A stretch of DNA of 63,946 bases, the filler included, from Pseudovirgaria hyperparasitica (lineage: Eukaryota): the NCBI GenBank assembly GCA_010093815.1. It is 31 parts of 31 records of this genome, joined end to end, with 100 filler letters (N's around TTAATTAATTAA, not from the genome) between each part and the next. Parts side by side here need not be neighbours in the genome. Positions count along the whole stretch, not along the records: positions 3,468 to 6,771 come from ML996655.1; 30 more parts are not named here. One strand, 5' to 3'. Position 1 is the stretch's first letter; each line of letters opens with the position of its first letter. Both the position numbers and the translations under genes were made by a program. Below the pieces are notes generated by a model. That model was not told the origin of the DNA. It did not search any database and saw nothing but the letters and a program-made list of their open reading frames with translations. Of this stretch, positions 1,397 to 45,535 are shown piece by piece.

Positions 1397-3367
1397 CTAT
1401 AAATCAATGAGTCCTTTACCTACCCACGACTTCAAGCAGAGTGCTGGTCGTACTATCGTAGGATGAAGCTTTGCTCGACGAGCAGTAATCATATCTCCAG
1501 CCTCGCTGAAGGCGCGCTCACACTCACAACTTGAGGCTGGGATACTGAGGACGTCTATCGCCAGTCGACTAAGCTGAGGGTAGTCATCTTGACGAGCTAT
1601 CCAGAAGGCTATTGGCGCGTTGGCCCATTTACTATCATGGCCGACAGGAGGCTCACGTCGCCAGCGGATAAGCTCATCCTCAATAACCTCATACTGTTCT
1701 TCCTCGGGTAACTCGGAGTGCTGAGAGATGAAGCTATCAATATCCGTGGTGATAGGGTCGTGATGTACCACTCACGGTGTTGTAGGTGATACCAATGTCT
1801 GTATAGGCTCCTCGCCAGTTGACTGTCTCTTATGCCACTGCCAATATTGCTTGAAGATAGACTCAGCATCTTCGAAGTCATCCCACGCGCTTCGACAGAA
1901 GGTCTTGAGGTTTGGATGAAGGTTTGTAGCAGCGTAATACGCGGGAGACTCATTGAGTGCTATGAAGTATTTATTCATCTTCAGCCAGCCGTTGTTGATA
2001 GCAATAATCATGTGGTCTCCGTCAGCAAGTGTCTCCGTCGTCATCTCATCTTCATTCATCAAATCAGGGACCATATACCGTATTTTGAGTCTCTCGAAGT
2101 GCTCCATGAGGTAGGTAACAATAGGGATGACTTTCCAGATAGCCCCGAACTCACTATTAGGCCTACGTCCCTCTAGGCGACGAGTAGCAACTCGGAGTGG
2201 TAGTAGTAACTCGAGGTATTGTTCTATCACGTCCCAATCATAGTGAGTAAGGCCGCCAACCTGGACAAATAGAGGCTCCTGGCTCCGACTGTCGAGTCTC
2301 TTAGGAGTCTTCATTGGTGGAGCTATAGGAGACTCAATAGACTCATCATCATCAGCCTGAGTCTCAAGATAGCGCCTTGAACGCTTTCTTGAAGTACCAG
2401 GCTGGTAGCCTGATTGGGTGTGTCTGTTTCTCTCACGAGCTGCCTTTACGCGTATAGCTTCCTTACGCTTCATTTCTACCTCCTTAACTCTCTCACGTTG
2501 TATGACTAGGTTGATATAGTATTGAGAAAACTGGTTGAGGGCTTCTCTAAGCTTGATTGCTCGTTCGATCGCGGATATGTGGCTATTCCAGCGTGTCTTC
2601 ACAGGTGTGATGACATCTAGTGGCTTAAAATGAGGGTCTATAAGAGTAAACGTAAGTAATAGAATAAATACTGTAGAGTGACGTACCCGGCGTAGGTAGA
2701 CTATTATTAATGTCTCTCTGAATGTCGTGGAATCGTCGTAGGCGTTCTGGTGTATTAATATGCCAGATGATGGCGAAAAGAGTACGAAGAGGCCCAAATT
2801 TACGCCATTCATCAATCAATATATCCTCATCTTTGGAATCTGGTGCGTCTTCATAGGCGAGCTTATCCTTCCCAAATAGGATACTCTTTGCGACGAGGTT
2901 GATCATGTGACAGAAGCACCGAATACGAAGATTTGGGTGCCAATCGTCCTCATTACTAGCTCCTATCTGGAGTTCCTCACAGATATACTCTATAGCGGTA
3001 TCGTTGTTTGACGCAGAATCGAGGACGAAGTAGCCGAGGTTCTTTGAATTGAGGTTGTATTGATTAAGCGTAGAGAGAGTGAGTTCGGCGTAATTTGAGC
3101 CTGTATGGGCACCTATTATCTCAGGTATATCGAGGAGGAAGTCGTGAAATTCGCCTAATATGGATAGTATATTTGTCAGCATCTTATTCCTCATAGACTC
3201 AACTTCATACTGGACTTATTACTCACCTTCTGCGCCTATAAAATGGACACAATACCCCATAAGTGCGAATCTCTGTTGACGTGTCGTCCAGCCATCAAAG
3301 GAGACATGTATCCTTGATAATGCTCCAGCCATGGCCTCAGTAAGTACACCAATATTGGCTTGATGTG
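1397..3367 (-). mobile_element. hAT-superfamily transposase (Restless/Tfo1-like), 5' end cut by contig edge, two introns, one in-frame stop
   Basis: Motifs in order: IHVSFDGWT (first catalytic D), VLDSASNND, RIRCFCHMINL, KTRWNS, then the hAT dimerisation domain (FW..YPQLSRLAIDVLSIPASSCECERAFS..LKSW). GT-AG introns at 3226-3155 and 2686-2638; the second joins ...PTP/D/PHFKPL in frame. A TGA at 1774-1772 interrupts an otherwise continuous frame. Confidence 0.9.
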
Positions 3368-3467
3368 NNNNNNNNNNNNNNNNNNNNNNNNNNNNNNNNN
3401 NNNNNNNNNNNTTAATTAATTAANNNNNNNNNNNNNNNNNNNNNNNNNNNNNNNNNNNNNNNNNNNN
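3368..3467. other. Artificial scaffolding spacer N44-TTAATTAATTAA-N44 (first of 30; last at 62844-62943)
   Basis: Identical 100-bp spacer with a six-frame-stop linker between contigs of decreasing length. Confidence 0.98.
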
Positions 3468-3562
3468 TAACCCTAACCCTAACCCTAACCCTAACCCTAA
3501 CCCTAACCCTAACCCTAACCCTAACCCTAACCCTAACCCTAACCCTAACCCTAACCCTAACC
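3468..3562 (+). repeat. Telomeric repeat (TAACCC)n, about 16 units, chromosome end
   Basis: Perfect hexamer array at the contig start; TTAGGG is the usual filamentous-ascomycete telomere repeat. Confidence 0.97.
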
Positions 3563-6306
3563 TCCAAGGCACCTTCGCAGAGGGAACCTACACCGAACGT
3601 ATCAACACAATCGAGAAGGAGGTCACAAAGGACATTGCGGCGGACGGACAAGTCCTCCCAAAAGGAGACGGGTCTTTCGCGTCTGGCACATTGCCTATAT
3701 GGCTGGTCGCAGACCAAAAAGCCTTCAAAACCAATGGCACTCGGTACCCTGCCCGGGCCGTTGCACTGGCTTTTGCCCTGGTATCACGAGAAACAGCCAA
3801 GCGCTTCAAAGCCTTGACTCTTGCCCACGACAAGGATGGAGATGTGAACATGGATGACTCGCAAGAGAAGTCTGATATCATCAAGTCCCTCGTCATCCAA
3901 GAGATGCGAAAACAAGGTTTCATGGGAAAACAGCAAGGTCAGCTGCGTGCTCTTCTAGACACGTTCTCACCTCACGCTAACGGATCACCCAGGAAAAAAT
4001 TCGCCTCGGACTCAGTCCAAAGCGTCCCCACCCAAGAGAAAAGCCGCGAAACGAACATCAGGTCCTGCAAAGGGCTCGAAGGTCAACAAGTCTCGCGGAA
4101 AAGGAAAAGGGAATGGGAAGAAGAAGTCTCAAAAGAAGTAGACAGATTAGACTCTATTTTTCAAACAAGTCTAGCGGGTCGTGGTCGGGCGGGCCGGGGA
4201 TCGCAGGCAGAGCCAAGGGCTACGCTTCGAAACCTGCGTGCATCGCCAACCCCGAGTGGATCGCGAGTAGAGCAAAGGGATGCGCGACGAAGCTCGCGTG
4301 TACCTCCAACTACTTTGCCTTCCCGACTCCCCTCCTTTGTATCTGTCCATCCTCGTTCTCTGCTGCGTTCAATCACAGACGACGGTGTACACTTCATTGA
4401 GAAACATTCGGATCTCTTTCTTTCTGTATCAGACATAGCTAGAAAAAGAATAATTACACTCTACACTCCCGCGTACCTGCTGGATGAAGCCCATGACTTC
4501 GCCAGCGGCGTGTTCCTAGGGCCGGGTGTGACTGTCCCCAGACATGTCGAGCATGCAATCGCGCTTAACGCGAAGTTCATTCTCCATCATAAACCGAATT
4601 TCTTGAAGTTGCCTGAAGCCTGGAAACAGCTTCAACGAAGTGTCCGCATTCGCTGGCACTTCCGCAACTCAGACAAACCGTCGAACAAGTTCTACGTCCC
4701 CAAACCGACGTGGGAACCACCTGCAGACCAATGGGATCCGATCATTGAAAAAGGGCTCGAAAGAGGCAAGGACTTACTGCTCCAACAAGCAGAAGCCCTA
4801 ACCCTCTCAGACACCCGAAGGCCTAATCCAGACCTAAAAATGATCGGCGAGTTCCTCACAGATGGAAAGTTCCTGGTCAAACTCACAGACAAAAATCTGG
4901 GACTTGCAATGATTCAGAAAACTTGGTATGTCGAGCACTGCAAACGCATGCTACTTAATAAAGATGTCTACAATGAGATCTGCAAGGAAGACATAGACTA
5001 CTATCGCACGGAAGTTCTGAAAAGAATCAGACACCTCATCGACCTTGGTATTGCGGAAGGTTCAACCGCTGAATACCTACTCTCGTCAGAAAATGACAAA
5101 GGCGTCCCAGTCTTCCATGCTATCCCCAAGGTACATAAGAAGAACTGGACATTACGCCCGATCATTCCCAGTCACTCATGGGTCACGAGAAGATGTTCAG
5201 AGGTCTCTGATCATATTCTCCGCATGGCACTCACACGAACGGCTCCTTGGGTCGTTGAATCGACCAAAGAGCTGATTGCCAAGCTAGAGACAAAGTCAAT
5301 TCTGAGATCGGACAATGTGTGGCTCTGCACCGGTGACGTGGAGAGCTTCTACACCAATGTCCCGCTCCAGGAAACTGTACAAATTATCCGTGACATGCAG
5401 TTCCCTGAAATGATTGACGGTATCAACGCTCGACGCATCCATCAACTGTTGGAAATTGTCATGAGCGTTAACTGCTTCGAGTTCGATGGCAAGTTCTACC
5501 AGCAAACCTCAGGTGTCGCCATGGGTACTTCGTGCGCCCCGTCATTCGCAAACCTGAGTCTTGCCTCAAAAGAATCTCCATATCTCCGTGCATCAAACGA
5601 AGAAGGCTTGCTCTTCTTTGCGCGATACATGGACGATGTTTTTGTCATCTTCAAAGGCCCGAAGACAGCCTGTGAGATGTGGCTCAATGGACTGAGCCAG
5701 AGCGTGAAACCTTATCACACCTCATGGGAAATTAATTCATCTCGTATACCGACCGCGTTCTTAGACGCGGAGTTCTTCTTTGAACAAGGTTTCGGAGCAC
5801 TGGGGTTACAAACACGTGCTTTTCGGAAACGAATGAATAAACATCACTATATTCCCTGGTCGTCTGCTCACCCCCTTACGGTGAAACGTGCTTTCGTTAA
5901 AGCAGAAATGACTCGCTTCATGGTTCTCTCGTCTTCAAGGCGGCTGTTCGAGGAACGGCTTCAAGAGTTCCATCAAGCATTGCGACGGCGTGGATACCCG
6001 TCGGACAGGCTTCAGTTGTGGAAAGGATTGGTACGATATGACGACCGACGGGCTGTCCTCTTCAAGCATAAGACACCCGCCGCAGGTCTACCACTCATGC
6101 TACCATCTTCATACGACGAATACTAGGAATACATTGATGTCCAGGCTGTGCTTTCAAAGATGATGGAACAATGGAACCGACACGAGGAACCCATTCCCGA
6201 GTCGCTCAAAGGTCCACTCATCAAATCACTGAAACGCACAGAGAATATGTTTAACAAATTCTCTGCGTGGAACAAAGCAGTTCTGAAGGAGGGAACCGAC
6301 GAGTAG
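3563..6306 (+). CDS. Penelope-like ORF1-RT reading frame (no start codon; premature TAG at 6124-6126, frame continues to TAG 6304-6306)
   Basis: Frame is open from the telomere junction. PLE RT motifs: LTDKNLGL, FHAIPKVHK..LRPII, TGDVESFYTNVP, YQQTSGVAMGTSCAPSFANL, RYMDDVF, FLD, YIPWSSAHP, RGYP. A further 59 codons follow the internal stop (EYIDV...SLKRTENMFNKFSAWNK...TDE*). Confidence 0.9.
3938..3992 (+). other. Predicted 55-nt spliceosomal intron in the PLE
   Basis: CAAG|GTCAGC donor, GCTAAC branch site, CAG acceptor. Removal shifts the frame to a K/R/G-rich tail ending at TAG 4139-4141. Confidence 0.7.
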
Positions 6307-6871
6307 TGTGAGCTGTGGCTGCCGCGAAACTCGGGGACCTCCCTCACGAATCTCCACCCTGGAACAGGTCTCGGTTAGGAGTGGTGGCACGACATGCCGA
6401 CCAGATAGGATCAAGCTTACTACCCCACCCTATCTCCTAACCCTAACCCTGAATCGCGAGCGTTTATTCGCTCATAAAAAAGGATCACTTGTGCGCGGTC
6501 ATACGTTGTGGTGCGGCTTCGGCCCTTTGGCGCCCAGGACGCAGCCCAGCCATCGGCGTCGGTGCTGTTTAAACACCGCTGCCCGAGGCATGCGCGCGTC
6601 GCGCTGTAGTAGCGCTCGGTGTTTGGGCGTGCCGATACCGGTGGGTGGGCCCTGGTGCGTTACCGCACGGCCCGTGGCGTGTGCTTTGCGCGCAAGCCTG
6701 CATCCTTGGACGGAAAAATGTGACATGCCAGCATTCACAGCGATTCTCGGCCAGAATGTGACCAGGTGACTNNNNNNNNNNNNNNNNNNNNNNNNNNNNN
6801 NNNNNNNNNNNNNNNTTAATTAATTAANNNNNNNNNNNNNNNNNNNNNNNNNNNNNNNNNNNNNNNNNNNN

Positions 6872-9800
6872 ATAGGGAAAAACTTCCTTATATCTATAAC
6901 TATATCTCGTTAAACCTCTATTTCGTCTTAAGTATATAGCTATAGGGTACGCCTATTAGTCTATAGCCTATATTACCGTTATTTTACCCTTAGGTAGTAC
7001 GTATAGATACGGAGGTTATTAGTTAAGGGCTACCCTCAACTAATAATCGGGGTTCTCCCAGGGTTCTTCCAGTATATATCGGGTTACTACCAGCGTATAC
7101 CGGGTCTCTTCCGGTATATATTTCTAGGTACACTAGTACTAGAGGAGTAGTAGATATATAAGTATCTATCAGGAGACGTTCTTAGGGTACTTATTAAGCT
7201 ATTATACAATATCTAAAGTCTTTATAACATAGATAAGCTATTACTATTATATATAGAGGTTAGGGTATATAGCTAGATAGTGGCGTATTATACCTCTCTA
7301 GCCGCACGCCTTATACTATAGCGAGGTATTAGGAACACCTCTCTTATAGATATAGTATAGGAGTCCTATAGCGCCCGTTCGGGCTTAGATAAGTATAGAT
7401 ACTTAGGCTTTCATTAGCCCTTTATATATCTATTTACTTAGTTCCTTCTATAGCCCTCGAATCTACTCTAGGTATCTATTCTACTAGAAGGTCTAGTAGG
7501 CACGGAGTACCTCTTTCTACTTATTTTAAGTCCACGACCGTATATTTTTTACGAGTTCTTAAAGGCTCTACTAGTCTAGGAGAGCGTCTAGGTTATCTCG
7601 GACTTCTTATACTACTTAGCTAGAGTCGGCTTCTATTAAGTACCTATACCGTATTCGATTCCAGCCTATATATAGAAGTATACAGTAATATATACTAATT
7701 CATACACGTAGCGCGGCGAAAGTATATTCTACATTTTCTATACATTCCTATACTTATTATTTAGTAAAGTATACTACCCTCTATATCTAGTAGAAGTTAT
7801 ATATACTTATAACGTCTATCTCGCGTCGTAGTAGTACCGTATTAGTAGCTTTATATACACCTAATATAAGACGGAGTATACGGTTCTATATAGATTCGAG
7901 CTTTATTTACCTAGTCTATATAAGGGCCGTATACTAGTACTCGTGTCCGTACGTAAAGGCGGGTCGTACTATAGATATATATAGCTAGCGTGCCTTATCC
8001 CGGGCGGTTCCCTATATAGAGGCTATAATCTATTATATAGTAGCTTCTACCCGGAGGGCCCTAGAGACGGCGTATACTACTTATAGTCCCTATTTAAGCT
8101 TACTATCTAGTATAACTCCAAGCGCGCATATACTTTATACTAGTAGTTCGTTAAATGCGTCGATTCAGGGGCGTCATTCGCCTTCCCTAGTTATCTATTT
8201 CCCTTAATAATTAATAAAGTATATAAGCTAGTATTTCTCTAGGGCGAACTTTACTCCATAGCGTTTTACCTACTAGAGACACCTCTTATAGTTCTATTCT
8301 AGTCGTCTATATATTCGGTTAGTATTATTATTAATAGCTAGAAGGTATATATTATCGGCGTATCCGACTACCTCTATATACTTTATTCCTTAAAGAAGGT
8401 CTACTATAAAGAAGAGGAATAGAATCGGAGAGATAGTGCTCCCTTATAGGATGCCGCATACCATCTCTTTATATTCACTCTAGTACCTAGAGATATATAT
8501 CTAAGTTATTCTTCCTATAAGGAATAACTATATAAAGCGTATAATCCATTCTAGTATTCATCTTATCCAGAGGTTATAAATAAGTCTTATATAGTTTACC
8601 TTATTAAACGCTCCGGCCATATCGAGGGAGAGGAGCGATACTACCCGTCCCTATTTCTATACGGCCTAGACGACTTTAATAATATATTAGATAGCTATTA
8701 TTAGGGAGCTATCTACCTTTACCTTCTAGTTCAGAGGGAGGAGATTATATTCCTATACCGCGGTACTTATCTTCTTCGCTATCATAGCCTCTAGTATCTT
8801 ACCTAGGTAGGAGAGAAGGGCGATTAGTCTCTATTCCTTTAGGGAGTTAGGGCTCTTTCCTAGTTTTGGGAGTATAATAGTATAGGCGACTTAGAAGCTC
8901 TAGAGGTGGTACCCCTACGTAACGTATACTTAGAATATATAAGTAATAAGCGGTAGGGTTGCTTTTATAGTACTTTTTAGACATTAATTTAGAATTCTAT
9001 CTAGTCCGGGTGCTTTATTATTTAGGAGTATCTTAATAATATTAAGTATATCCTCCTCTATAACTTCTTCGGGGATATCTACCGTATATAGATATTCGGC
9101 GCCGTGAACGTCTAATAGATCTACTAGTTCCGGGAGAGGGAATATGGCCTCCTATAGGGCCTTAGTTTTCTTAAGGCCTATAGAGTATATTCTCCCCTAA
9201 TATATTAGGGGAGGTATAAGTAGCGGGGGTGTCGGAGTATCTACGCCCTTAGCCCATTTCGCCATGCGCTATAGCTCTATTATATATCGTGTCTATTAAC
9301 TAGTAATTATATACTACTATTTACGCCTTTTATTACGGAGGACTTTATCGCGTTATTATATTACTTCCTTCTATTCTTTCTATGACTCGGGTGTTCTCGT
9401 ACGGTATACGCGTCTATATAGCCTTTAGGCGTCTTATCTACTTTCCCGTACTTAAGGAATCCCCTTTACTTCTAGGGGCCGGTATATTCGGTATAGTACG
9501 TGTTTATTTCTTATATTCTAGTATATTTATAGGAGTATCTATACGGCCTAGTCTATAGCTAGGTTATTAGATATATTAACTATAGAGGGATCTAGAATCG
9601 CCGATTCTAGGTCCTTTAGGTACTTTTCCTAGTTAGTATCCTTCTATATCTATTGTCCCTATTATTTATTCGGGGTATATACGTTTATTACGGTTTCTAT
9701 ATATTCATGGTTAGAATCCGTCTATACCTAGCCTAGGCGGTAGTATTAGATCTAGTAACTAATATACTCCGTGGCGAAGGTAAGGTTAAGCGTGAACCCG

Positions 9801-10109
9801 TCTTCGTTCTATTTATATTTTTTCTATATAACTTATTCTATAGGTATAAGTAGATATAGAAAGTCGTGGTAGCGGGTACGTAGTTCCCTTACTCTAAGTT
9901 CTTCCCTAACTACGGCTAGGTCTCTCTACTATTAGTAGTAGAGGTTAAAGTCTCCTAGGAGGATATATTACTCTAGTTCCGTAGTACCCTTAAGTATCTC
10001 GTCTAGTATAAGTATACGTTATTAGTTATATATATTATATATATATAGGGGGCCTATATCTATTTATAGGTATAGTATTATCCTAAGGTTATCGCGCTCG
10101 GTATACGAC
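6872..10109 (-). mobile_element. RIP-degraded Tad1-like LINE (EN-RT-3'UTR)
   Basis: Extreme TpA excess. Minus-strand relics DMAGAFNKV, GIL*GSTISPIL, VGYADN (from YADD). Related copies elsewhere in the window. Confidence 0.88.
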
Positions 10110-11204
10110 NNNNNNNNNNNNNNNNNNNNNNNNNNNNNNNNNNNNNNNNNNNNTTAATTAATTAANNNNNNNNNNNNNNNNNNNNNNNNNNNNNNNNNNN
10201 NNNNNNNNNGGCAGGCCTCGAACGACCTGCACGCAGGAGCTGTTCCGCGGTTGCGCGAGGGCACTGCAGCCCCGGCACGCGCCCACATCACATACCTGAT
10301 AAATGATCTCCTATTCTGACTCGTCATAGCTTTCACGGTATACATACTAGCCACTCGACACGCCGGGACCCTCAAAGGAAACAAGGTCGGCAGGCAGCCG
10401 CGAATGTGGGGACTTGGTCCCTGCTCGCATTGGGACAGAAACAGTTAGATGTAATTACTTACTCAGTACTGTAACGAAGTCACATTTCGGTTCCCTTGTT
10501 CGTGATACAAAGTACCGCCCTGGGTGGAGCTGCTCTTGGCAACAACTTGCTGCCAAGAGCGGCTTTAGCCCGGGCTAGCATATCGCACTACACCATATAT
10601 AGCTTAGATAATCCTTTTCGACCCACATGTTAGTTGGAGGGAGCATGACCGCGCCTCAGAAGCAGAACATGTATGAATACTACAGCGACAAGTTTCTACT
10701 GCCTTCGTGCTATCTGTATACATAGCAATCGGGCCCAGGAATTTGGGAAGGAGGGTAAGGTTCCGGGACCCTCCTCGAGCGGGAGGACTTGCTTTTGATC
10801 TCGTATATGACCAAATCAGATCAATAGCCTGTCCGTGCCGCGTTGTCGCACACCGGCGGGCAATAATATGCTGCGTGCGCCCTGTGAGGAAGTCTATCAG
10901 GGGTCAAGACCAATGTACCGGCGTTACAGATCGAACCATTCTGGAAATTTGAATAGGAGGTCGACATTGGAGTACAAGCGCTAAGCAATCACAGTGTGAT
11001 TGCGCAGAAGTGGGAGTCGGAACGAGACCTGGGGTCCCATTCTAAGCTCTCATGTTAGGTGTTTCATATCGTGTGTTTGATATCTTATGTAATAGTGAAG
11101 GATACTCACGCATGGATTGTGCCAAAAATATTCGTTACCTTTAGACGTTTCTAAGCATCCCTCATCTACTCGTCAAAATCACTAGCAAGACTTCACAACA
11201 CGAT

Positions 11205-12313
11205 ATGAGCTCCCGTGGCTCAATCGATGATGGCTGTGGTGGCGAGGATGCTTCTACTCCACTCCTCCCTCGATTGCTCCCCGCTTTGGGGGGTCATGGA
11301 AGTCGAGGTCCCAGCATTCGACTCTCGTCTGCACCGCCCAAAAGGATAGGAAACCCTATGGCGTGCGGCCCCTGTAAAGCCAGGAAGTCGCGGGTATGTT
11401 ACCATCGAGCTTTGACGACGGACGCCTCTAATATGTGAGGCGGGTGCTAGTGCGATGGAATTCGGCCAGTGTGTACAAGATGCCAGAAGAAGAACACCGG
11501 TTGTCAGTATGAGTTGCGAGCCGGTGTTTCTCGTCAAGTCGCCTTGAAGATCTTTAACGTTGATCTGAAGCGTGAGAACACCGACTTGAGAGAGCTTGTA
11601 TTACTCCTGAAGACGAAGAGTGAAGATGAAGCAAAAGCAATACTCAATATGATCAGATCCCACGACGATCCTCTCAGTGTTATCGAGAAGCTTCGACAAC
11701 ATAAACTGCCTTTCGCTTGGTCCGACACGCCGGGCCAGGACTCTGATAAGGCTGACGAGAAAGTCATCAAGAGTGCGATCCGGGTCCCTGCCCAGCCGTG
11801 GACAAGTGTGGCGACCGACGAAGTGGTCTCGGAGCTGATCACTGCCTGGTTCGCTTGGGAAGACACGACACTGTTTTCGTATATCACACTAGATCTTTTC
11901 GTAGCAGACATGAAAGCAAGCGATCCAGAGCGTGCGACATTTTGCTCTCCCTTCCTCGTCAATGCCATCTGTGCTGCCAAAGCCATCAGTTGCATCGCAC
12001 GAGCTCATAGAATGAGAAGTGTCCACAAGGCCTTCAAGTCCATGGACAAGCCTGCCGCAGACGCAACGTCTGAAAGTACATGGGAGCTAAGCGAACGATT
12101 CCTCGCCGCTGTGAAGGAGCACTTGGAGCTTCAGTGCGGACGGGCTTGGCTTCCTACCATCCACGGACTGTATTGTCTTTTTCAGCACGCATCTATCTCA
12201 GGAGTAGATCGGGCAGGCTAGTTCTATCGACTTGCTGCGATCGACATGATAAGCCGTCTCAACCTCACAAAGGTAGACCACGTGCTCAAAAGGGACATAT
12301 TGCATACTGCTAA
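11205..12313 (+). pseudogene. Zn(II)2Cys6 transcription factor (NirA-like), truncated, with premature stop
   Basis: ACGPCKARKSR | intron 11394-11450 (GTATGT..CTAAT..TAG) | CDGIRPVCTRCQKKNTGCQY, then VPAQPWTSVATDEVVSELI and FCSPFLVNAICA. TAG at 12219 lies inside a continuing frame. Confidence 0.85.
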
Positions 12314-12875
12314 GAACCGAGCTAGACGACACCTGAACCTTCAATACCTGAATTTGGATGAACCAGAATGGCTCGCCTCGCTCAAATTTTCTCGCTTTAG
12401 CAGATGTCAGGATATGTCAGGATAGTCTATGACAAGGGTTAATATTTACCCATCAAAACACTTTCAATTCAAGACCTTCACACTCTATAACCCATTTCTC
12501 AAATTGGTGACAAATGTTAGAAATACCGGGAGCAGTTAGTAGGTGAAGGGTGTATATCCTGGCGAAGAATTGTAACGATACGCACGAATCGGCCATCAAC
12601 GCTGTGCAGTTATGCATTGCCAGCATGATCCTCTGTCCAAAAGATAATCGGAACGTCGGGAAGTTAAGCGCTAGACTTTTTTAGTCATGGTCCAGGAATA
12701 CCTGCATCGTGTATAACTATGCACGACTCGAAAATGTCCCGCTAGGTTGACATCGTCTGCGACCTATCTATATATTCACCTTATTCACATCTCTTCGAAA
12801 TAGTTTTATTGCAAGCTTATTTCCAACTTCGCACATTGTGCATCGTCAGCATTACTTTAAAACGTCACTTGCAGT

Positions 12876-13064
12876 ATGGCTGACAACCCACCGCCTTCGA
12901 AGGACGAACAAGACAAAGCGAGACGCGCAGTTAACGAAAATATTATGAATAACCCGGCGGGCACAGCACTCGTTCAGGCCGCGGGTCTCTCCTCTCAGCG
13001 CAAGAGACAAGAGCTCAAGGAAAAGAAGGAGAAAGAGGAGAAAGAGAAGAAGGATGACAAATAG
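12876..13064 (+). CDS. Small charged hypothetical protein (62 aa)
   Basis: ATG in good context, TATATA about 105 bp upstream, K/E-rich C-terminus. Confidence 0.45.
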   Translation: MADNPPPSKDEQDKARRAVNENIMNNPAGTALVQAAGLSSQRKRQELKEKKEKEEKEKKDDK

Positions 13065-13444
13065 GTGCGTCATTCGATCCAGTACTCTTTTCCAAGTTGA
13101 CAGCACCGAAGCTGTCGCTCCTAACACTTTGACAGTCGTTCCTTTAGCATGTCATGCTTCACTCGAACTTGAGGGTGGGTATTGGTGGGGCAGTGTACGC
13201 GATTCGCGACACATCGGTTGACGAATTCAGTCCACATTACGGTCTACAAATGTACTGAACACTATTAAATCGAATCAAGATTTTATTTGAGAAATTTTAC
13301 NNNNNNNNNNNNNNNNNNNNNNNNNNNNNNNNNNNNNNNNNNNNTTAATTAATTAANNNNNNNNNNNNNNNNNNNNNNNNNNNNNNNNNNNNNNNNNNNN
13401 CTGCAATTTTTCTATGAGAGAGCTGAGCGTGAGGGTACTACCGG

Positions 13445-14623
13445 CTATGTCCGTGGATTCGCTCCATAAACGATGAAGGAATGATTGAGCCTTTGCGTGC
13501 CACGGACATACTGCACAGCACCTGGGACAGCCATCCAAAAACGCATGTCTTCGCCTCGCTTGAAGTGCTCCGAGATATGCGTAACACGGTGCTTCCATGA
13601 GTTCAGAAGATAACCACAAATACCGCACCAGTAACTGGGTTCGATCTGGGGCTTTGAAAATCGCGACAAGATATCCTCGTTCGGATTGAAAATCTTATGG
13701 CAATTTTCAATATGCTTAATGAATTTGTCTTTCCTGGTGAACGTACGTCTTGATTCTTCCTTCTTGATACACTGACACAGGTCGTGTGACTGTAGATGCA
13801 AAGACGTGGGGCTGTTCATTCCACCAAATACACACTGAGTCTTCTTCGCGATTGATGGAGATGTTACAGCCTTTTCGGGCATGCAGATCCACTGCTGCAA
13901 GCGGAGATGTATAGTTTGCTCGTGTCGCTCCCAGTCATACCTGCGCTTGAAGTCCTGCACACAGAAAGTGCACTGGAAGATGTGATCGGGAGAAGACGGT
14001 GTCCGGAGTAGCGATGCGGTAAGATCAGGCTGAATGCGCCGCGACTTCTTCAGTCTACGCTTCTTCGGTGGTCTGTAGTTCTGGATGGGGTCGAGATTCG
14101 ACTGTGGAGAACACAAGTCGGAATTTTTGCCAAGCTTTTTGACACTCTTGGTACCTGCAGATGCTTTCGCTTGTCCTCGACAGAGCTTCCTCGCACGAGC
14201 ATTAGCGAAATATACTTGTACTTGACGGACACTTAGATCGGTGAGCGCAGCAAGCTCTTCACTCTCCTGCCTAGTAAGATCTGGGTCTGCGAGCCGCTGC
14301 GTGAATTGTTGAGCAAGTATAGCCTGCGCGTTGTGCGGAAAGGTCTTGCAATCTTTCGCAATCTTACAAGACTGACTCTCCTTTGTCGTGTCTCCCACAG
14401 GCGTCTGCCTTATTAGATATGAAGAATATCGAGGCTTTGAAAGGTTGGCAGCGGAGTACTCTATTCTTTCGAGTGACTGCGGTGCGGTCGAATGGACAGT
14501 CTCGCATGAGCCATACGCGGGAGATATATGATATCCATACCAGTGGTCGTGACTCCAGCATGAAGCGCTTTGTTGCGAGCATGGTTGCGTGTTTGTCTCC
14601 ATTGGCCTACATAAGTCCGTCAT
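13445..14623 (-). CDS. Homeobox plus C2H2 zinc-finger transcription factor (degenerate homeodomain)
   Basis: LAALTDLSVRQVQVYFANARARK recognition helix; FQCTFCVQDFKRRYDWERHEQTIH; RTFTRKDKFIKHIENCH; WCGICG...RVTHISEHF. Confidence 0.88.
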   Translation of the reverse strand: MTDLCRPMETNTQPCSQQSASCWSHDHWYGYHISPAYGSCETVHSTAPQSLERIEYSAANLSKPRYSSYLIRQTPVGDTTKESQSCKIAKDCKTFPHNAQAILAQQFTQRLADPDLTRQESEELAALTDLSVRQVQVYFANARARKLCRGQAKASAGTKSVKKLGKNSDLCSPQSNLDPIQNYRPPKKRRLKKSRRIQPDLTASLLRTPSSPDHIFQCTFCVQDFKRRYDWERHEQTIHLRLQQWICMPEKAVTSPSIAKKTQCVFGGMNSPTSLHLQSHDLCQCIKKEESRRTFTRKDKFIKHIENCHKIFNPNEDILSRFSKPQIEPSYWCGICGYLLNSWKHRVTHISEHFKRGEDMRFWMAVPGAVQYVRGTQRLNHSFIVYGANPRT

Positions 14624-16942
14624 GGTTTAGTAGCATAATTTGCGTGCCGTAGTATCGTTACTGACTGGGCTTGGTCTGCACTCGTGTTAGACTCGAGGAG
14701 AGGCTCCTGCGAGCCTGATAGCACATATATACTGTCCCAGTATAGGCTTATTCATCTGCAATGAGTCAAGAGGCTTTGGCAGAGCCATGGCTGAACAAAG
14801 CGGCACTATAGGAAAAGAGTATTATCGTTAGTACAGCCAAGGCGACTGACATGGTTTGGCTCAGATATAGATTCCGAGATAGCGTAGCAGAATCTATGGC
14901 TCAGCATGGCTTAGCTGATTGGAGAGCGGCGATGACCTGGTGGATCTCGTGGCTCAGATACTTGTTACCATCTTGCAAGCTTGCTTGAGACATGATGCTC
15001 GTGTAGCGCAGTCGTTTCGCTAGGTGTGAATGGTGCAGATTGAGTCTTCTGTTACAGTGCATACTGGCGCCATTGTTTACCTGCCAAGGTCTTGGCAGTC
15101 TAGAATCCTGGACCAGTGCTGACCAGCTTAATGAGTAGATCTTGTCACAGTGCCGTAAAATAATGAAGACTCGCCCAGAAGTCGGTCCACTGGTTGCCTA
15201 CTTACTGAGCCTTACAGAGACGCTTCCTGCGCGCCCTGTAGCTCTCATCACTGCAGGGATCAATCAACTTATACCTAGTACGATACAACAGCGAAATGGC
15301 ACACAGCGTCGGCATGTGGGGCCTGCGCCTTTTCAGACTGCCTCTTCCGGACATCAGTCTTTTCGAAACTTAGTATTTAAAGCACTCTTAGTTGTACTTA
15401 CGCCCGGCAGAATTCTGGAGGATACTGACTTTCTAGCGTCCGCCTTGACAGCAAGATGCAGTCGCAAACGCCCCTCGAACCATTGTCAGCGACTTCCCTA
15501 GGAGCAGAAACAGAGTGTGAAGTCCTCTCAGATGACCCCTATGCTGTCTACATACCCCAGCAGCTCAATTATTCCGGGTTGTCTTCTAGGACTTCGAACG
15601 AGGTCTGTGGCTCCTACAATTTCGGGGACCCAGGCGTATACTTGGATCAAGCAGACGGCTGAGGACTTCCTTCGCACGACCGGTAACGGAATCTCAGACG
15701 TCGGATGATCTGTCTATCTCGCACACGCACAAAAGTCTTCTCAATGCTATATCTAGAGGCTAACATGACGGCCCGGTTCGGACCTCGGACCGGATCTTGT
15801 CGCTTTCACTCCGTGCCTCTCCTATTTATAGCTGCTTTTCTACTATACTTAAGGGGCTTTCACTGTCGGTATGCCTAGAACATGATGATAAGAAGTTGAG
15901 CATTCTTTCCATGCCAATGGACTCAGGAGTCCAAGCGGTGAACCCCCGAAATGGATCGAATATTACTAAAAGATTGACTAAAAGATAATCCCTTACGGAA
16001 TGAAACTTGTAGTATAGAAAACATACCTTAAAGTATCCAAACTAATATGCTGAGCCATGACCGTACTGAGTCGGTATCACTGATTCGAGATCCATGCCCT
16101 TACTGAGCCATGACCAGTCTCTATCCAGCCTGTTCGGTCTATTTCGAATCCTCGCTTTCGGTTGTAATGATGCTACTTTTAGATTGCGTGATTGAATCTA
16201 AGCAATCGTCGTGCTGAGCTTTGAAGTAGGTGGAGCATACAATCANNNNNNNNNNNNNNNNNNNNNNNNNNNNNNNNNNNNNNNNNNNNTTAATTAATTA
16301 ANNNNNNNNNNNNNNNNNNNNNNNNNNNNNNNNNNNNNNNNNNNNGAGCCAGGCGCATCGCCCAGTGCGTCCCGGACACCATGGCAGCCGCGTGGCCTCA
16401 AGAGATGGTGTGGCCCATCGCGCTCCGCGAGCACGCAACTCACTCCTCGCTCCCTGATGTTCCACCACTGACAATACGCGCTGCCAGCACTAACCTCCAT
16501 CAGTATTGAGGCACTATGTACGACCAGTGGCTGGCCTGAAGCCTCCACTCGAACAGGGTGACTGATTGCCATGGGACCCATGCAACCCTTTGCTCCGAGA
16601 GCACAACACACATCTCAAAGTTCAAAGCGATTCCGCGAACTGATCCCGAGGATGGATTCAGTAGCTTTAAGCCTTGTATATTTCTCTGCAGGCCATTGTT
16701 CTTATATCTATAGGCTGAAGCCGTTGTGAGCATAACCAAGGAGTCAGGTGAGATTACCGTCCGTTATCTGACGGAGATGACGATATAATTTATAGGTTGT
16801 GTACTCTTCACCTTCCAGGATTATAAGAACCCCTCCGATTAATCTGAAACGCGGTACCACACCGGGTCACGGACTGATCTGGGAGGCAAACTGCCATTTT
16901 GGTGCTATTCCACGGCGCATGATATGCGTCTTGGAAAATGTA

Positions 16943-18375
16943 CTAGCTATCTCTGTCATCCTCTGATGCTATATAAAGCTTTGTGTAAAATCTGATAATC
17001 CTTGCCAAGAGCTGGTGCGAGGTTTGAGTATGTCTTGAATTTGTGCATCGTTTATTCAAGGAGTTCGGGGACTTCATGGATCGGGGCAAACCCGTCAAGG
17101 TCTTTAAACCATACAGACTCGCAGCACTGTGCAAGAACCAAGCAATTTCCGAATTGACTGTCGTCTCATGTTAGGTGTTTGATATCATGTGTTTGATATC
17201 ATGTGTTTGATATCATGTGTTTGATATCTTATGTAATAATGAATGATACTCACGCATGGATTGTGCCAAAAATATTCGTTACCTTTGGACGTGTTCGAAT
17301 ACCGTCGAAAGCTTCGGTACTCCGGATCAAGGACCACATGCAGGCATGACTAAGTAGCATGCTCCTGAATGCTTTGGTACTAATGCCATCCCGAGACTGA
17401 GTTAGATCACTATCAAGAAGATCTTCAAGTGAATTCCCCCATTCCGCTTCCCGGAGCTTTGAAGCCGTCAAGCTCTCTTTTCGAGATCTGATGTAATTCC
17501 ATGCTCGGTACATCTCGGTCGGCTTCTGGGCAATGGTATTCGTAGTGTAGGTATGGTCGAGTAATGATTTTTTTCTGCACCATAGTATTTCGCTCGTAGC
17601 CTAGTAATATTTAGATCTGGGGAAGGATCGTCATAATCATCCCAATCCACACTCATCGCTTTACTCACGTTTAGCCAGTTATATAGCCGATTGAGAAACG
17701 AAGGTATGCCTGTTGACGCCTCTCTGCCGAATGGAGGTTCGTATACGCCAGCTGGGAAGTTGTGTGGTGGATGGTTCCATAAGGGGAATAGGTACATGGG
17801 GACCTGATTGAGTATCTTACGCAATTTTATCTGTGCTGAATACAACACTATGGTGATGTCACGCTGGTTGTCGACTTGCTGGGCCTTGTCTTCGTGTGTC
17901 AGACCTTCACCCCTACCGTATATCCGTAAGATTCCCCGTTCTTCTCCAATCTTTAAGGGGTAGTCACCCAAAATAGGAACCAGTTCCAGACGAGGAGACT
18001 GGATTGGCTTGGACTAATGTTTGAAGAAATACGGTACTGGTAGTATATGTGTGAAAATACTGTACCATGCACGAGGTTCTTTTTGATAAGGACACTTCAG
18101 CCTCGTTGGCTATTCTCTTTTCCATGTCGAAGCAGATGGAAGCAAAATGATGCACTGTACGGCCTTACAAACCCCTCAACTTGGCGGAATGGGATCCGGA
18201 TGCCTTGGGCTTTATATCTATGACGGACTGTGCGACATCTCTCGGAGATCTTGCTGCTCATACATTTGTTTCCCAAATTCATGGTGATGCGGACCTCGAA
18301 TGGTATGTCATGTACGTCACGCGGACTACTCGCGTACTGTTCGTGGAATGATCTGTATTGTACATAGCCTATCAT
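16943..18375 (-). pseudogene. Fragmented fungal C6 zinc-cluster-type TF (middle/C-terminal region)
   Basis: Broken frames with LRIYGRGEG, YSAQIKLRKILNQV, DDPSPDLNITRLRAKYYGA and TNIFGTIHA|intron|QFGNCLVL; several frameshifts. Confidence 0.7.
17175..17228 (+). repeat. 14-bp tandem repeat GTGTTTGATATCAT x~4 (intronic)
   Basis: Directly visible; lies inside the predicted intron of the C6 pseudogene. Confidence 0.9.
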
Positions 18376-24825: not shown

Positions 24826-26960
24826 TAATAGAGGTTAAAGTCTCCTAGGAGGATATATTATCCTAGCTCGGTAGTGCCCTTAAGTATGTTATCCGCCTAA
24901 AGTAATCGGTTCTAATTATATATATTATATATATAGAGGGGTCCGATATTCGTCTAGAGGTGTAGTATTATCCGGAGGTTATCCTATTTAGTATACGACT
25001 ATAATAAGAGTAGAATAGACTTATAGATATAGAAGAGGACTCTCCTCTCCGGTCCTAGGGGGTGTATTATATAATATTCTAGGTGTGTTATTGGTTTGTT
25101 CGTCTGGTAGTGTTTATATAGCTCCTATATGGCGAGTATTATAGCTCCGGTCTCCTCGAGGAGTATCGCCTAGTTCTTACGTTTATACTATACGTTTATC
25201 TATATAATTAGGAGTGCGTCTTAGTCTCTCATTAGGTGCTAGGGAATATATAGGCCTATATATTTATTCCGCTAAGATACGACTATCCTCGTGCGGCGGC
25301 GGCCTTAGTAATTCCTTAGGGCCGTCCTATTATTAGCTTTCTTAGGACGGTTTACTATTTCTAACCGCTTCCTCGTAAGGAGGTAGTCTATAGTAGTAGT
25401 ATTATAGTAGAGAGAGGAACGGAGGTAGGTCGTATCATTTATAGCTACCTTACTCCCTTTATCCGGATTAAGTAGATATATTCGGTAACCTATTTATGTT
25501 TCGCGCACGTAGCCGACTACGACGGGTACTTACCGTCGTAGTTAGAGTACTTTACCGTGTCCCTATCTCTCTAGCCCTCTTCTCGTGTCCCGTGGGGGCA
25601 CTCCTAGGTACTATATTCTTATTAATACTACCTATACCTAGTCTTTTAGGAGTACCGCTATACCGTGTACCCGTATCTCTAATAGTTAAAGTACTATATT
25701 ATCGCCTATACTCTATCCCATGGTTCCGCTATAAGAAGCTCCCCTTCCGCTAGGAATCCCTCTTACGTAATTTAATACGCGAGGGCGGGGTCCTTAAGCT
25801 CTACTATTATAGTAGAGTATACCTTTAATCTGGTTTTAATCTCTTATATATTCTTCTACTATGCTCTTATAATCTTAATCCCTAGGTATTTTTGCTCGTT
25901 TAACTATTCTATCTACGTGATATTCTCTTCTCTAATAACCTATCCGCTTATAGATATAGAGTATATCTATATTAGGTATATGGCCGCCCTAATAGAGGCG
26001 CCTAGGAAGATACTACTAATCGCGTTTAGATCGCGCGAGATGGTCTACTACGCGATATTCGTTATCGTGGTAAGTACTACTCCTCCTAGCGTAAGTTTAG
26101 TAGCGACGACGTTTAACTATATTCCCTTTTATTTATTAATCTTACTTACTATGTCCTTTAGGGATGCTCGCTAGACCTATACTAGGGTATCCTTATCCTA
26201 GATTACGACGTATATACTATACACTACGTTACCGGTCCGGGGGGCCCGTAGTATAGCCTCCGGTGTTACTACTATTTATATCTATATACTAGGGCGCTTA
26301 CCTTAAGTAAGTTCCTCCTAGATTCTACGTAGGCTAGCCTCTATTCGGTCGAGTCTACCCTCCGGTCCTCCTAGTTATATCTTCTTCTCCTCCTCCGTAA
26401 TTCCCTTTAGATTTTAGATAAGATTCTAGAATATATATAGAAGGGTCTTCTAGCCCTCTCCGGCTTCCTTCTCTATACGTACTACCTAGTAGTTAATATA
26501 ATCTAGAAGGGTTTCCCCTCTTAGGGTCCCCTTTATTCCGTCTATCTATAGCGGCGTGCGCCTTTAGGTGTATTCTACGTTTTAGATAGGTATATAGCTA
26601 CCCTTAGTAATGTCGCTATATAGCCTTTTCTATCGTACTAGTAGGGGTATATCTAGTATATACCGGGGTATATCGGTGCCTAAGGCCGCCATATTTATTA
26701 GTTAAGGGCTACCCTTAACTAATAAAAGGGGGTCGGCGTATTAGTATTCTAGTAGCGTAGTCCGTGCCTCTATCTCCGTGAGGATTTTAAGAGGGTATAT
26801 ATATATCTTTATACGGCGATAACGTCTTGGTTTCGACGCTGCACGTACGTGTGTATAGTAGTAGTTAGTATACTCGGTATACTCTATTAATTAAGGTATG
26901 TATCTCGCTATATTACCCCGAATGGACCAAGTTAGCCTCTTAGGGATGTAAAAGAAGTTT
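24826..26960 (-). mobile_element. RIP-degraded Tad1-like LINE, 5' part (5'UTR, gag-like ORF1, start of endonuclease)
   Basis: I*YFNY*RYG (from IQCFNCQRYG zinc knuckle). The contig start is homologous to the EN region at 9936-10109. Confidence 0.8.
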
Positions 26961-27413
26961 TTTTTTTACTTAGGTATTATACGAAAGTATATATTATTAT
27001 TCTATATATATTTATATATATAGATACCTTATAAAACTTAAGGGGGTGTATAAACTTAACCTCTACTATATCTAATAAGTTTATATAAGGTATTTCCTTA
27101 TTAGGAATAGCTTAATATTAGTAATCGATATTACTAATATTATCTACTTATATATATAAACACTCTATACTCTTATAGAAGTTTCTAGAACCCTCTAGAA
27201 ACTTCTAGAGGTCTTTAGAAACACGAACTTCTATAGAGTTCTATTAGGTTCTACTATAGAGTCTATAAGTTCTATAGAGTTCTACTCTACTCTATTCTAT
27301 TCTAAGGAAACTANNNNNNNNNNNNNNNNNNNNNNNNNNNNNNNNNNNNNNNNNNNNTTAATTAATTAANNNNNNNNNNNNNNNNNNNNNNNNNNNNNNN
27401 NNNNNNNNNNNNN

Positions 27414-29695
27414 ACCTATAGAATAAGTTATATAGAAAAAACATAAATAGGACGAAGACGGGTCTACGCTTAACCTTACCTTCGCTACGGAGCATATTAG
27501 TTACCGGATCTAATACTACCGCCTAGGCTAGGTATAGACGGATTCCGACTATAAATATATAGAAACCGTAATAAACGTGTATACCCCGAATAAATAATAG
27601 GGATAATAGATATAGAAGGACACCGACTAGGAAAAGTACCTAAAGGACCTGGAATCAGCGATCCTAGATCCCTCTATAGTCGATATATCTAACGACCTAG
27701 CTATAGACCAGGCCGTATAGATACTCCTATAAACATACTAGAATACGAGAAATAAACACGTACTATACCGAATATACCGGCCCCCGGAAGTAAAGGGGAT
27801 TCCTTAAGTACGGGAAAGTAGATAAGACGCCCGAAGACTATATAGACGCGTATACTATATAAGAATACCTAAGTCGTAGAAAGAATAGAAGAAAGCAATA
27901 TAATAACGCGATAAAGTCCTCCGTAACGAAAGGCGTAAATAGTAGTATATAATTACTAGTTAATAGACACGATACGTAATAGGGCTATAGCGTATAGCGA
28001 AATAGGCTAAGGGCGTAGACACTCCGACACCCCTACTACTTATGCCTCCCCTAATATATTAGGGGAGAATATACTCTACGGGCCTTAAGAAAACTAAGGC
28101 CCTACGGGAGGCTATATTCCCTCTCCCGGAACTAGTAGACCTATTAGACGTTCACGGCGCCGAATATCTATACGCGGTAGATATCCCCGAAGAAGTTACG
28201 GAGGAGGATATACTTAACATTATTAAGATACTTCTAAATAATAAAGCACCCGGACTAGATAGAATTCTAAATCGATACCTAAAAAGTACTATAAAAGCGA
28301 CTCTACCGCTTATTACTCGTATATTCTAAGCATACGTTATGTAGGGGTACTACCTCTAGAGCTTCCGAGTCGCCTATACTATTATACTCCCGAAGCTAGA
28401 AAAGAGCTCTAACTCCCTAAAGGGATAGAGACTAATCGCCCTTCTCTTCTACCTAGGTAAGATACTAGAGGCTATGATAGTGAAGAAGATAAGTACCGTA
28501 GTATAGAAATATAATCTCCTCTCTCTAAACTAGAAGGTAAAGGTAGATAGCTCCCTAATAATAGCTATCTAATATATTATTAAAGTCGTCTAGGCCGCAT
28601 AGAAATAGGGACGGGTAGTATCGCTCCTCTCCCTCGATATGGCCGGAGCGTTTAATAAGGTAAACTATATAAGACTTATTTATAACCTCCGGATAAGACG
28701 AATACTAGAATAGATTATACGCTTTATATAGTTATTCCTTATAGGAAGAATAACTTAGATATATATCCCTAGGTACTAGAGCGAATATAAAGAGACGGTA
28801 TACGGCATTCTATAAGGGAGCACTATCTCTCCGATTCTATTCCTCTTCTTTACGGTAGACCTTCTTTAAGGAATAAAGTATATAGAGGTAGTCGGATACG
28901 CCGATAATACATACCTCCTAGCCATTAATAATAATACTAATAGAACGTGTAGACAACTAGAATAGAACTATAAGAGGTGCCTCTAGTAGGTAAAACGCTA
29001 CGGAGTAAAGTTCGCCCTGGAGAAATACTAACTTATATACTTTATTAATCGTTAAGGGAAATAGATAACTAGGGAAGGCGAACGACGCCCCCGAATTAAC
29101 GCATTTAATAAACTACTAGTATAAAGTATACACGCGCTCGGAGTTATACTAGATAGCAAGCTTAAATGGGGACCATAAGTAGTATACGCCGTCTCTAGGG
29201 CCCTCTAGGTAGAAGCCGCTATATAACGGATTATAGCCTCTATATAGGGAACCGCCCGGGATAAGGCACGCTAGCTATATATATCTATGGTACGACCCGC
29301 CTTTACGTACGGACACGAGTACTAGTACACGGCCCTTATATAGACTAGGCGAATAAAGCTCGAATCTATATAGAACCGTATACTCCGTCTTATATTAGGC
29401 GTATATAAAGCTACTAACACGGTACTACTACGACGAGAGATAGACGTTATAAGTATATATAACTTCTACTAGACATAGAGGGTAGTATACTTTACTAAAT
29501 AATAAGTATAGGAACGTATAGAAAATATAGAATATACTTTCGCCGCGCTACGTATATGAATTAGTATATATTACCGCGTACTCCTATATATAGGCCGGAA
29601 TTAAATACGGTATAGGTACTTAATAGAAGCCGACTCTAGCTAAGTAGTATAAGAAGTCCGAGATAACCCGGACGCTCTCCTAGACTAGTAGAGCC
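27414..29695 (+). mobile_element. RIP-degraded Tad1-like LINE ORF2
   Basis: Reverse-complement copy of about 7565-9845; DMAGAFNK and VGYADN relics. Confidence 0.88.
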
Positions 29696-37360: not shown

Positions 37361-37374
37361 ATACTAGATATAAG

Positions 37375-45435: not shown

Positions 45436-45535
45436 NNNNNNNNNNNNNNNNNNNNNNNNNNNNNNNNNNNNNNNNNNNNTTAATTAATTAANNNNNNNNN
45501 NNNNNNNNNNNNNNNNNNNNNNNNNNNNNNNNNNN

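Follow-up and report, generated by a model that had tools for sequence, protein, structure and literature searches.

Positions 3468 to 6771 of a 63946-base stretch of the genome of the ascomycete Pseudovirgaria hyperparasitica (the whole stretch is called the window here) most probably hold, with about three chances in four, a dead copy of an endonuclease-deficient, telomere-associated Penelope-like element (PLE) of the Coprina/Athena kind, lodged in a host active in repeat-induced point mutation (RIP). On this reading a 15-nt telomere-complement tract near the right side of the copy is an internal part of the element, and the flank beyond it is element sequence. That the copy is dead is directly visible: it has no start codon and no 5' region, and it carries one nonsense codon of the RIP type. 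A preliminary description, made from the sequence alone, had seen here a chromosome end built from such an element; its observations are confirmed in part, and its interpretation is partly supported.

The window consists of 31 contigs arranged in falling order of size, the largest of 3367 bp and the smallest of 1003 bp. Between them stand 30 identical linkers, each N44-TTAATTAATTAA-N44 (3368-3467, 6772-6871 and 28 more). Since it is a concatenation of small contigs, features on either side of a linker are not genomic neighbours. The element occupies the second contig, which is 3304 bp long, has 51% G+C and is unplaced, so that what was first called a chromosome end is, strictly, the end of a 3304-bp unplaced contig. 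With telomere repeats at the edge of this unplaced contig, a position at a chromosome end is plausible.

A truncated and broken copy behind a telomere tract

The contig opens with telomere repeats that run directly into an open frame without a start codon, exactly as first described, and the two can overlap by at most 2-4 nt at their junction (coordinates of all features are collected in Table 1). Only two telomere-like tracts exist in the whole window, this one and the 15-mer behind the 3' untranslated region (3'UTR), and neither blastn nor tblastn finds a further copy of the element there. In an exhaustive HMMER search, residues 1-853 of the frame align to residues 133-976 of one full-length relative (P0007) and 135-957 of another (P0029). 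Because the first residue falls on residue 133-135 of these proteins, the copy lacks about 132 codons and everything upstream; full-length homologues have about 1030 residues. The reported 5' truncation abutted by telomere repeats thus stands, the frame beginning at about codon 133 right after (TAACCC)15.

The frame does lead into a PLE-type reverse transcriptase (RT), with an RVT_1 domain, the DKN and RYMDD motifs and a thumb, but it is not intact as had been supposed. It is continuous except for a single TAG, while the relatives have just one open reading frame (ORF) of about 960-1080 codons; the tryptophan normally found at this site is kept in all six homologues fetched (...PSSYDE[IV]WE[YH].D...).

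Table 1. Coordinates, in the window, of the element's features and of the AT-rich contigs that bear RIP marks
Feature	Position	Strand	Details
Telomere repeat tract	3468..3562	+	(TAACCC)15 at 3468-3557, then TAACC to 3562; C-rich strand; 5' extreme of the contig
5'-truncated ORF	3562..6123	+	854 codons, no start codon; the repeats are read in frame as NPNP
DKN motif (KLTDKNLGLA)	4888..4896	+	PLE hallmark, upstream of the RT core
RT core, Pfam RVT_1	5275..5679	+	residues 572-706, E 2.9e-10
Catalytic RYMDD	5623..5637	+	R, D and D invariant in the 42-sequence alignment
In-frame TAG	6124..6126	+	replaces a conserved Trp codon; TGG to TAG is a G-to-A change, TpG to TpA, of RIP type
Last 58 codons and natural stop	6127..6305	+	stop at 6303-6305; homologues terminate at the same residue
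3'UTR	6306..6435	+	hairpin H1 (GGCA 6386-6389 / TGCC 6395-6398); hairpin H2 (6403-6409 / 6429-6435)
Short telomere-complement tract	6436..6450	+	CCTAACCCTAACCCT, 15 nt, 130 nt after the stop; H2 abuts the tract
Flank past the tract	6451..6771	+	321 nt, 61% G+C; opens with a hairpin (6458-6462 / 6469-6473)
RIP-marked AT-rich contigs	6872-10109, 24826-29695, 32044-34091, 36301-38127, 43850-47104, 59005-60269		

The encoded protein

The protein has the hallmarks of a PLE. The D, K and N of the DKN motif are invariant in 21 of 21 and in 42 of 42 aligned sequences, and the columns without exception in the larger alignment include DKN, PK.HK, RPI.P, the aspartate of motif A, Q..G.AMG, R..DD and the thumb signature P..S.HP, whose invariant residues are P486, S489, H491 and P492. 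DKN, RT motifs 1-7 and the thumb are given as the domains typical of PLEs (PMC13159263). The protein also contains an NLS-like (nuclear localization signal) stretch, KRKREWEEE. A mitochondrial retroplasmid was considered and rejected, as the nuclear-type telomere repeats, this NLS-like stretch and the PLE motifs speak against it.

Of 8000 candidates scored in a word-indexed search, 194 were relatives at E<=0.001; the top one is 63% identical and has 1031 residues. The few that bear names are all from ascomycetes (Diaporthe, Beauveria, Orbilia, Pochonia, Aspergillus nomiae and Cordyceps). The exhaustive HMMER search returned 13145 cluster representatives at E<=0.001, of which 787 at E<=1e-30; the nearest clusters of the ESM Atlas carry PF26215 (HTH_animal) and PF28514 (DUF8422), with rotifers as the commonest phylum.

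The absence of a GIY-YIG endonuclease, already claimed in the preliminary description, holds: no other frame of the contig has a Pfam match at E<=1, and so the contig contains no GIY-YIG domain. Nor is an endonuclease domain to be expected after the ORF, since the homologues terminate at the same place. Among 20 long relatives, GIY-YIG was found in none at E<=0.001, while 12 matched RVT_1 and 8 gave no match.

An AlphaFold model of residues 280-854 (mean pLDDT, the per-residue confidence score, 87.9; pTM, the global one, 0.84) was compared with the PDB by Foldseek. The five best matches are all TERT structures (Tribolium at 7.7e-11, 2.5e-10 and 1.4e-9, Tetrahymena at 9.2e-9 and human at 1.8e-8), followed by LINE-1 ORF2p at 2.0e-8 and by a group II intron-like RT and retron RTs at 3.5e-8.

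The 3'UTR, the short tract and the flank

The tract CCTAACCCTAACCCT lies behind the 3'UTR, where it had first been noticed. What it is becomes clearer from the relatives. The 69-nt block that ends in it (6383-6450) is 80.9-95.7% identical to the corresponding block of 13 other loci. For the ORFs of these loci DNA identity is 64-72%, and in all 13 the tract keeps a fixed place relative to the block. Hairpin H2, next to the tract, has 6-9 bp in 11 of 11 sequences, with nine distinct stem sequences; judged from these alignments, it is a covarying hairpin that abuts the tract. Conservation of this sort argues that the 15-nt tract is a built-in part of the element and not an old chromosome end.

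Several distant relatives (L023, L051, L056, L061 and others) carry GAGTTCRAACCT or GGTTCRAAC immediately before the first telomere tract. Either sequence folds into a hairpin of 4 bp whose TTCRAAC loop is reminiscent of the T-arm of tRNA, and it stands in the same place as H2 in the clade of the window copy.

The preliminary description took the DNA after the tract to be unrelated. That part does not hold: all relatives carry element sequence at this place, and 6451-6771 is repeated in the same sample. In one sequencing run of that sample (X2), a separate 329-nt contig starts at the tract and spans 6436-6761 with 36 differences, and three more short contigs branch at 6732-6771, meeting the last 33-40 nt of the flank. 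From these four contigs it follows that the flank is repeated in that genome. The flank begins with a hairpin that is present in each of 11 sequences. Most simply, 6451-6771 would be the first part of a 3' pseudo-LTR (long terminal repeat) or of the next head-to-tail unit.

Relatives with a ribozyme past the tract

One scan of metagenome contigs of the Joint Genome Institute gave 293 pattern matches, 142 of which encode relatives; the best 80 were reduced to 77 loci (L001-L077). Their common architecture consists of the ORF, a 3'UTR, a short internal telomere tract corresponding to the 15-mer of the window copy, a variable region that measures 216-596 nt and the core of a hammerhead ribozyme, followed by a spacer of about 100 nt, often a second, 12-nt tract, and then the start codon. 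In 36 loci the stop of the ORF is followed by the tract and then by the hammerhead, and tract and ribozyme are 216-596 nt apart. Strand polarity is strict: C-strand telomere tracts of at least 12 nt occur on the ORF strand in 63 of the 77 loci and on the other strand in none, and the hammerhead core CTGA.GAG.C...GAAA shares the strand of the ORF in 70 loci and has the opposite orientation in one. The window copy has the same polarity, its sense strand being the C-rich telomere strand, which bears out the Athena/Coprina orientation first proposed.

The core does not vary among the 39 sequences aligned. A full hammerhead fold, defined by a helix III of at least 3 bp from A15.1:U16.1, a cleavage nucleotide other than G and a helix I of at least 3 bp, is obtained for 50 of 58 distinct segments as against 7 of 1160 shuffled ones. 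Rfam found nothing at E<=0.1 in 18 related loci, and the ribozymes were detected by the motif and this pairing test instead. RNAalifold, applied to a MAFFT alignment, recovered helix II alone, with three pairs, because helix III is not aligned by sequence. By motif and predicted pairing, then, the hammerhead is a real feature of the family, and is of type I. Fungal telomere-associated PLEs are described with hammerheads that have a large helix III (PMC4209133).

About 60 nt downstream of the hammerhead core, most loci with a listed ribozyme carry its complement (L003:611-690 and L008:3023-3100 are examples). As judged by eye and uncounted, it changes along with the core, CTCATCA accompanying CTGATGAG and CTCTTCA accompanying CTGAAGAG. 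An alternative pairing of this kind may turn the ribozyme off.

Where DNA copies end is seen in several loci. In L013 a long telomere tract is followed by a variable region, the ribozyme, the ORF, the 3'UTR, the short tract and then the variable region and ribozyme again; the 300-nt direct repeats are 100% identical, and a long telomere tract lies 107 nt past the start of the last ribozyme. The same layout is found in L041, which stands at the start of a 29313-nt contig with 96 nt of telomere repeats; its 300-nt direct repeats are identical to 94%. From its relative L074 it departs right behind a 12-nt tract, about 112 nt past the start of the last ribozyme, and five decayed loci of another subfamily (L017, L018, L019, L035 and L055) diverge from one another about 125 nt past the ribozyme. 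These divergence points imply that DNA copies in three subfamilies run through the short tract, the variable region and the ribozyme, and the tract accordingly marks the inner edge of a pseudo-LTR and not the end of the element.

Some decayed copies lie deep in long contigs: L018 at 9629-17251 of 26460 nt, L035 at 47768-55132 of 73168 nt, and likewise L052 and L055. The longest open frames of these four are of 253-493 codons, and their 3' boundary has no telomere tract. They may be internal relics or belong to a subfamily that inserts internally. Moreover, 34 of the 77 related contigs close on themselves, with identical ends of 123 nt (31 contigs), 127 nt (two) or 70 nt (one). In these cyclic contigs (for example L003:1-4014 and L008:1-4026) the ORF is circularly permuted and the unit measures 3403-4012 nt; circular molecules and head-to-tail arrays fit them equally well.

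RIP and the origin of the contig

The host is proficient in RIP, as first proposed. In nine of the 31 contigs, with 26-40% G+C, TpA/ApT is 1.52-1.93, (CpA+TpG)/(ApC+GpT) is 0.05-0.33 and the composite RIP index exceeds 1.2. The element contig, with values of 0.68, 1.12 and -0.44 respectively, differs from them. In the duplicate of its flank in run X2, all 32 listed substitutions are transitions (17 G>A, 8 C>T, 4 A>G and 3 T>C), and 19 of the 25 changes toward A/T lie in CpA, compared with 25% CpA among all C positions. Thus, the window copy is almost untouched by RIP whereas the duplicate of its flank is RIP-marked. Taken together, the RIP indices of the contigs and the CpA bias of the duplicate point to a RIP-active host in which the element is endogenous.

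Another run (X1), put together with an independent assembler, yields a contig that covers 3571-6771 with no difference and adds 37 letters on the telomere side; the contigs of run X2 leave 4289-4548 uncovered. From two runs of a different sample that bears the same species label no matching contig was obtained, which does not prove its absence there, and none of the sequencing runs listed as containing the element contig is an RNA run.

A model for the formation of the copy

The steps proposed here follow the published Athena/Coprina model (PMC8557442, PMC13159263) and the polarity of the copy. At an uncapped chromosome end, the G-rich 3' overhang would pair with C-strand telomere repeats located at the 3' end of an element RNA or close to it, and the element's RT would extend the overhang without any endonucleolytic cut. 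Copying would halt early, within the ORF, or the end would erode later, and telomerase would then add (TTAGGG)n, read on this strand as (TAACCC)15. The place where the 3' side of the element truly joins older DNA would come after the point at which the contig stops on the right. Situated about 110 nt ahead of the start codon, the ribozyme would release the 5' end of the element RNA from co-transcripts, a role that has been proposed in PMC4209133 and is compared with the ribozymes of other retrotransposons in PMC13725137.

Several points weigh against the reading of the contig as a Coprina/Athena copy that continues past its tract. The 321-nt flank cannot be aligned with the flank of any relative, similarity stopping at the conserved block; the region past the tract is unalignable even between relatives with about 50% protein identity. 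The hairpin that opens the flank is modestly stable in the window (z -2.57), and the 11 sequences span -0.17 to -2.78, so that the assignment of the flank to the element rests on its position, this modest hairpin and its repetition in the same sample. The window copy shows neither a hammerhead nor a second pseudo-LTR, the contig being cut on both sides: Rfam gives no match at E<=1, and the motif scan likewise finds no hammerhead in the 3304 nt. A missing ribozyme is expected, since the contig ends 321 nt after the tract whereas the distance to the ribozyme is 381-587 nt in those 10 of the 13 closest loci where it can be measured. Both runs that contain the contig come from one sample, possibly the source of the assembly itself, and are not independent. 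The protein was assigned to the PLEs from its RVT_1 match, motifs, ESM Atlas neighbours and predicted fold rather than from a labelled tree of Coprina, Athena, Penelope and TERT. The margin by which the fold favours TERT over other RTs is modest (7.7e-11 against 2e-8, with TM-scores of about 0.45). Finally, a sequence search of the PDB with a 21-sequence profile did not find TERT, its top match being a defence RT at 4.9e-5; this search is uninformative on kinship with TERT.

Alternative explanations

The 5' junction could have arisen by loss and healing, a longer terminal copy having been broken or eroded within its ORF and re-capped by telomerase. We consider this possible, though at odds well below even. 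Telomere repeats fused to an internal position of the ORF are the outcome of either process, and 5' truncation is a mark of terminal position in the published description (PMC5537684). The sequence does not separate the two, with a single junction and no other copy in the window, and the run contigs offer no joints or loose ends.

It is about equally conceivable, and again rather doubtful, that (TAACCC)15 is no physical end and lies buried between stacked elements, the contig stopping there as short reads fail to cross the repeats. L013 provides a precedent, since behind its tracts of about 100 nt comes more element sequence, a 100% match to what its own contig begins with. The element contig is, moreover, unplaced, 3.3 kb long and one of 31 small contigs. 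On the other side, the orientation is that expected at a left chromosome end, and L041 has the same arrangement from the very first base of a 29313-nt contig. A tract of about 90 nt is also near the usual telomere length in filamentous fungi, which counts against burial.

The interpretation originally offered was that the element ends at the 15-nt tract, the remnant of an eroded telomere that had served as primer for the annealed RNA, and that 6451-6771 is unrelated subtelomeric DNA. This is unlikely. The flank indeed has no detectable similarity to the flanks of relatives, and the tract is able to pair with a G-overhang; for other copies, priming from an internal tract is possible. Yet the tract and the preceding 55 nt are 80.9-95.7% conserved at a fixed place in 13 loci; copies in three subfamilies continue past the tract, by 216-596 nt to the hammerhead and then beyond it; a RIP-mutated second copy of tract and flank exists in the same sample; and additional branch contigs join the last 33-40 nt of the flank. 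The proposed annealing of the RNA to an eroded end through this 15-nt tract is not supported, the tract being an internal, strongly conserved part of the element in relatives.

More speculative still, and improbable on present evidence, is the idea that the family uses a unit-length circular or concatemeric, hammerhead-cut RNA, in which the hairpin-clamped, single-stranded CCCUAA would be a template-plus-boundary module like that of telomerase RNA, docking the G-overhang internally or letting the RT add repeats. The hints are the 34 cyclic contigs among the 77, the conservation of the 69-nt block above that of the ORF, the maintenance of H2 and the complement that, by eye, covaries with the ribozyme core. 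Against it, head-to-tail DNA arrays explain the cycles equally well, and the ends observed in DNA copies lie past the ribozyme instead of at the tract. A narrow literature search, which included PMC13725137, found no description of full-length circular RNAs of fungal PLEs. If true, the idea would make the fungal elements a living intermediate between retrotransposon and telomerase.

Contamination or a chimeric assembly is a very improbable origin of the contig: it is small and unplaced, its closest protein is 63% identical and two runs of the other sample with the same label gave no contig for it (which is no proof of absence), but the CpA-biased C-to-T changes of the duplicate flank follow the RIP pattern of nine of the 31 window contigs, the X1 assembly reproduces 3571-6771 without a difference, its 51% G+C is close to that of the contigs without RIP, and all named homologues are from ascomycetes.

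Comparison with known elements

Coprina and Athena are endonuclease-less telomeric elements reportedly described by Gladyshev and Arkhipova in 2007. Telomeres with endonuclease-less PLEs are on record from rotifers and fungi as well as from plants and protists (PMC8557442, PMC5537684 and PMC4209133), and Athena and Coprina are said to attach to exposed G-rich overhangs by means of reverse-complement telomere tracts with adjacent hammerheads (PMC8557442). The suggestion that such an element is unusual for an ascomycete no longer holds, as Coprina-type PLEs have been published from Ascochyta lentis and are cited for Tuber melanosporum, where they occur at almost every chromosome end (PMC13159263).

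The A. lentis element, Coprina-1_Alen, is the nearest published counterpart by description. It sits at the very end of 13 chromosomes of isolate P94-24, with telomere repeats on both sides and direct repeats; its transcription was detected, and a second isolate is without it (PMC13159263; published 2026). Like the window element it is a fungal endonuclease-less PLE with an NLS, DKN, RT motifs 1-7 and a thumb, and the likeness extends to telomere repeats on both sides, the outer ones terminal (plausibly so in the window copy), to direct terminal repeats, which relatives of the window copy have, and to apparent presence in one isolate and absence in another. It differs in having two or three ORFs, where the full-length relatives of the window copy have one of about 1000-1040 codons, a comparison made by description, and in lying at placed chromosome ends, whereas the window copy is truncated and unplaced.

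With Coprina (of basidiomycetes and other eukaryotes) and Athena (of bdelloid rotifers) in general, the window element shares the lack of GIY-YIG and the occurrence of 5'-truncated, telomere-capped copies. One ORF is characteristic of Coprina and two, usually, of Athena, a criterion that is not strict (PMC13159263). The single ORF of the window element matches Coprina, while its ESM Atlas neighbours are mostly rotifer clusters, so that it may be either Coprina-like or Athena-like. The other PLE clades (Penelope/Poseidon, Neptune, Nematis and Naiad/Chlamys) also have an RT with a DKN-type motif and a thumb, pseudo-LTRs and, in most clades, hammerheads within these repeats, but they encode GIY-YIG and insert inside chromosomes, and the window element has no GIY-YIG.

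TERT provides the top structural matches to the model of residues 280-854, over 567-753 columns. TERT extends, and the element's RT would extend, a G-rich 3' end with the help of an RNA that includes the C-rich telomere complement. Sequence identity is 10-13%, and TERT copies a short template whereas the element would copy its own mRNA. The HeT-A, TART and TAHRE elements of Drosophila resemble the window element in head-to-tail addition to chromosome ends, in the centromere-ward orientation of the 3' end and in frequent 5' truncation. They are, in contrast, non-LTR elements of the LINE (long interspersed nuclear element) type, primed at poly(A), and substitute for telomerase, whereas the window copy bears telomerase-type repeats (PMC5537684).

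Other features of the window

A fragment of a LINE-type (non-LTR) retrotransposon takes up an entire small contig: a frame of 586 codons at 40152-41909 (+) matches Exo_endo_phos_2 (E 3.2e-17) and RVT_1 (E 3.5e-26). Two further small contigs hold, respectively, a 393-codon frame with a homeodomain at 13448-14626 (-) (E 4.5e-7) and a 166-codon frame with ankyrin repeats at 34687-35184 (-) (E 2.6e-33). In the first contig, 1397-3215 (-) has several long frames that resemble a decayed transposase, the C-terminal part recalling by eye a hAT dimerisation region; two of these frames gave no Pfam match at E<=1e-4.

Significance

Endonuclease-free PLEs are the retroelements nearest to telomerase, and they illustrate a way in which chromosome ends can be lengthened by a mobile element. 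The window copy adds one more ascomycete host and a case in which such an element coexists with active RIP. It does not alter current knowledge, since the kind of element, its polarity, its telomere tracts and its ribozyme are already in print. For annotation, the lesson is that a short telomere tract after the 3'UTR is, in this family, an internal landmark at the edge of a pseudo-LTR and not an insertion junction. The conserved 69-nt block and the cyclic contigs are of more interest than the window copy itself; the cyclic contigs and the complement of the ribozyme core have no bearing on the verdict reached for it. Diverse environmental relatives with a non-coding block conserved above the coding sequence offer a start for studying how the RNAs of these elements find the G-overhang.

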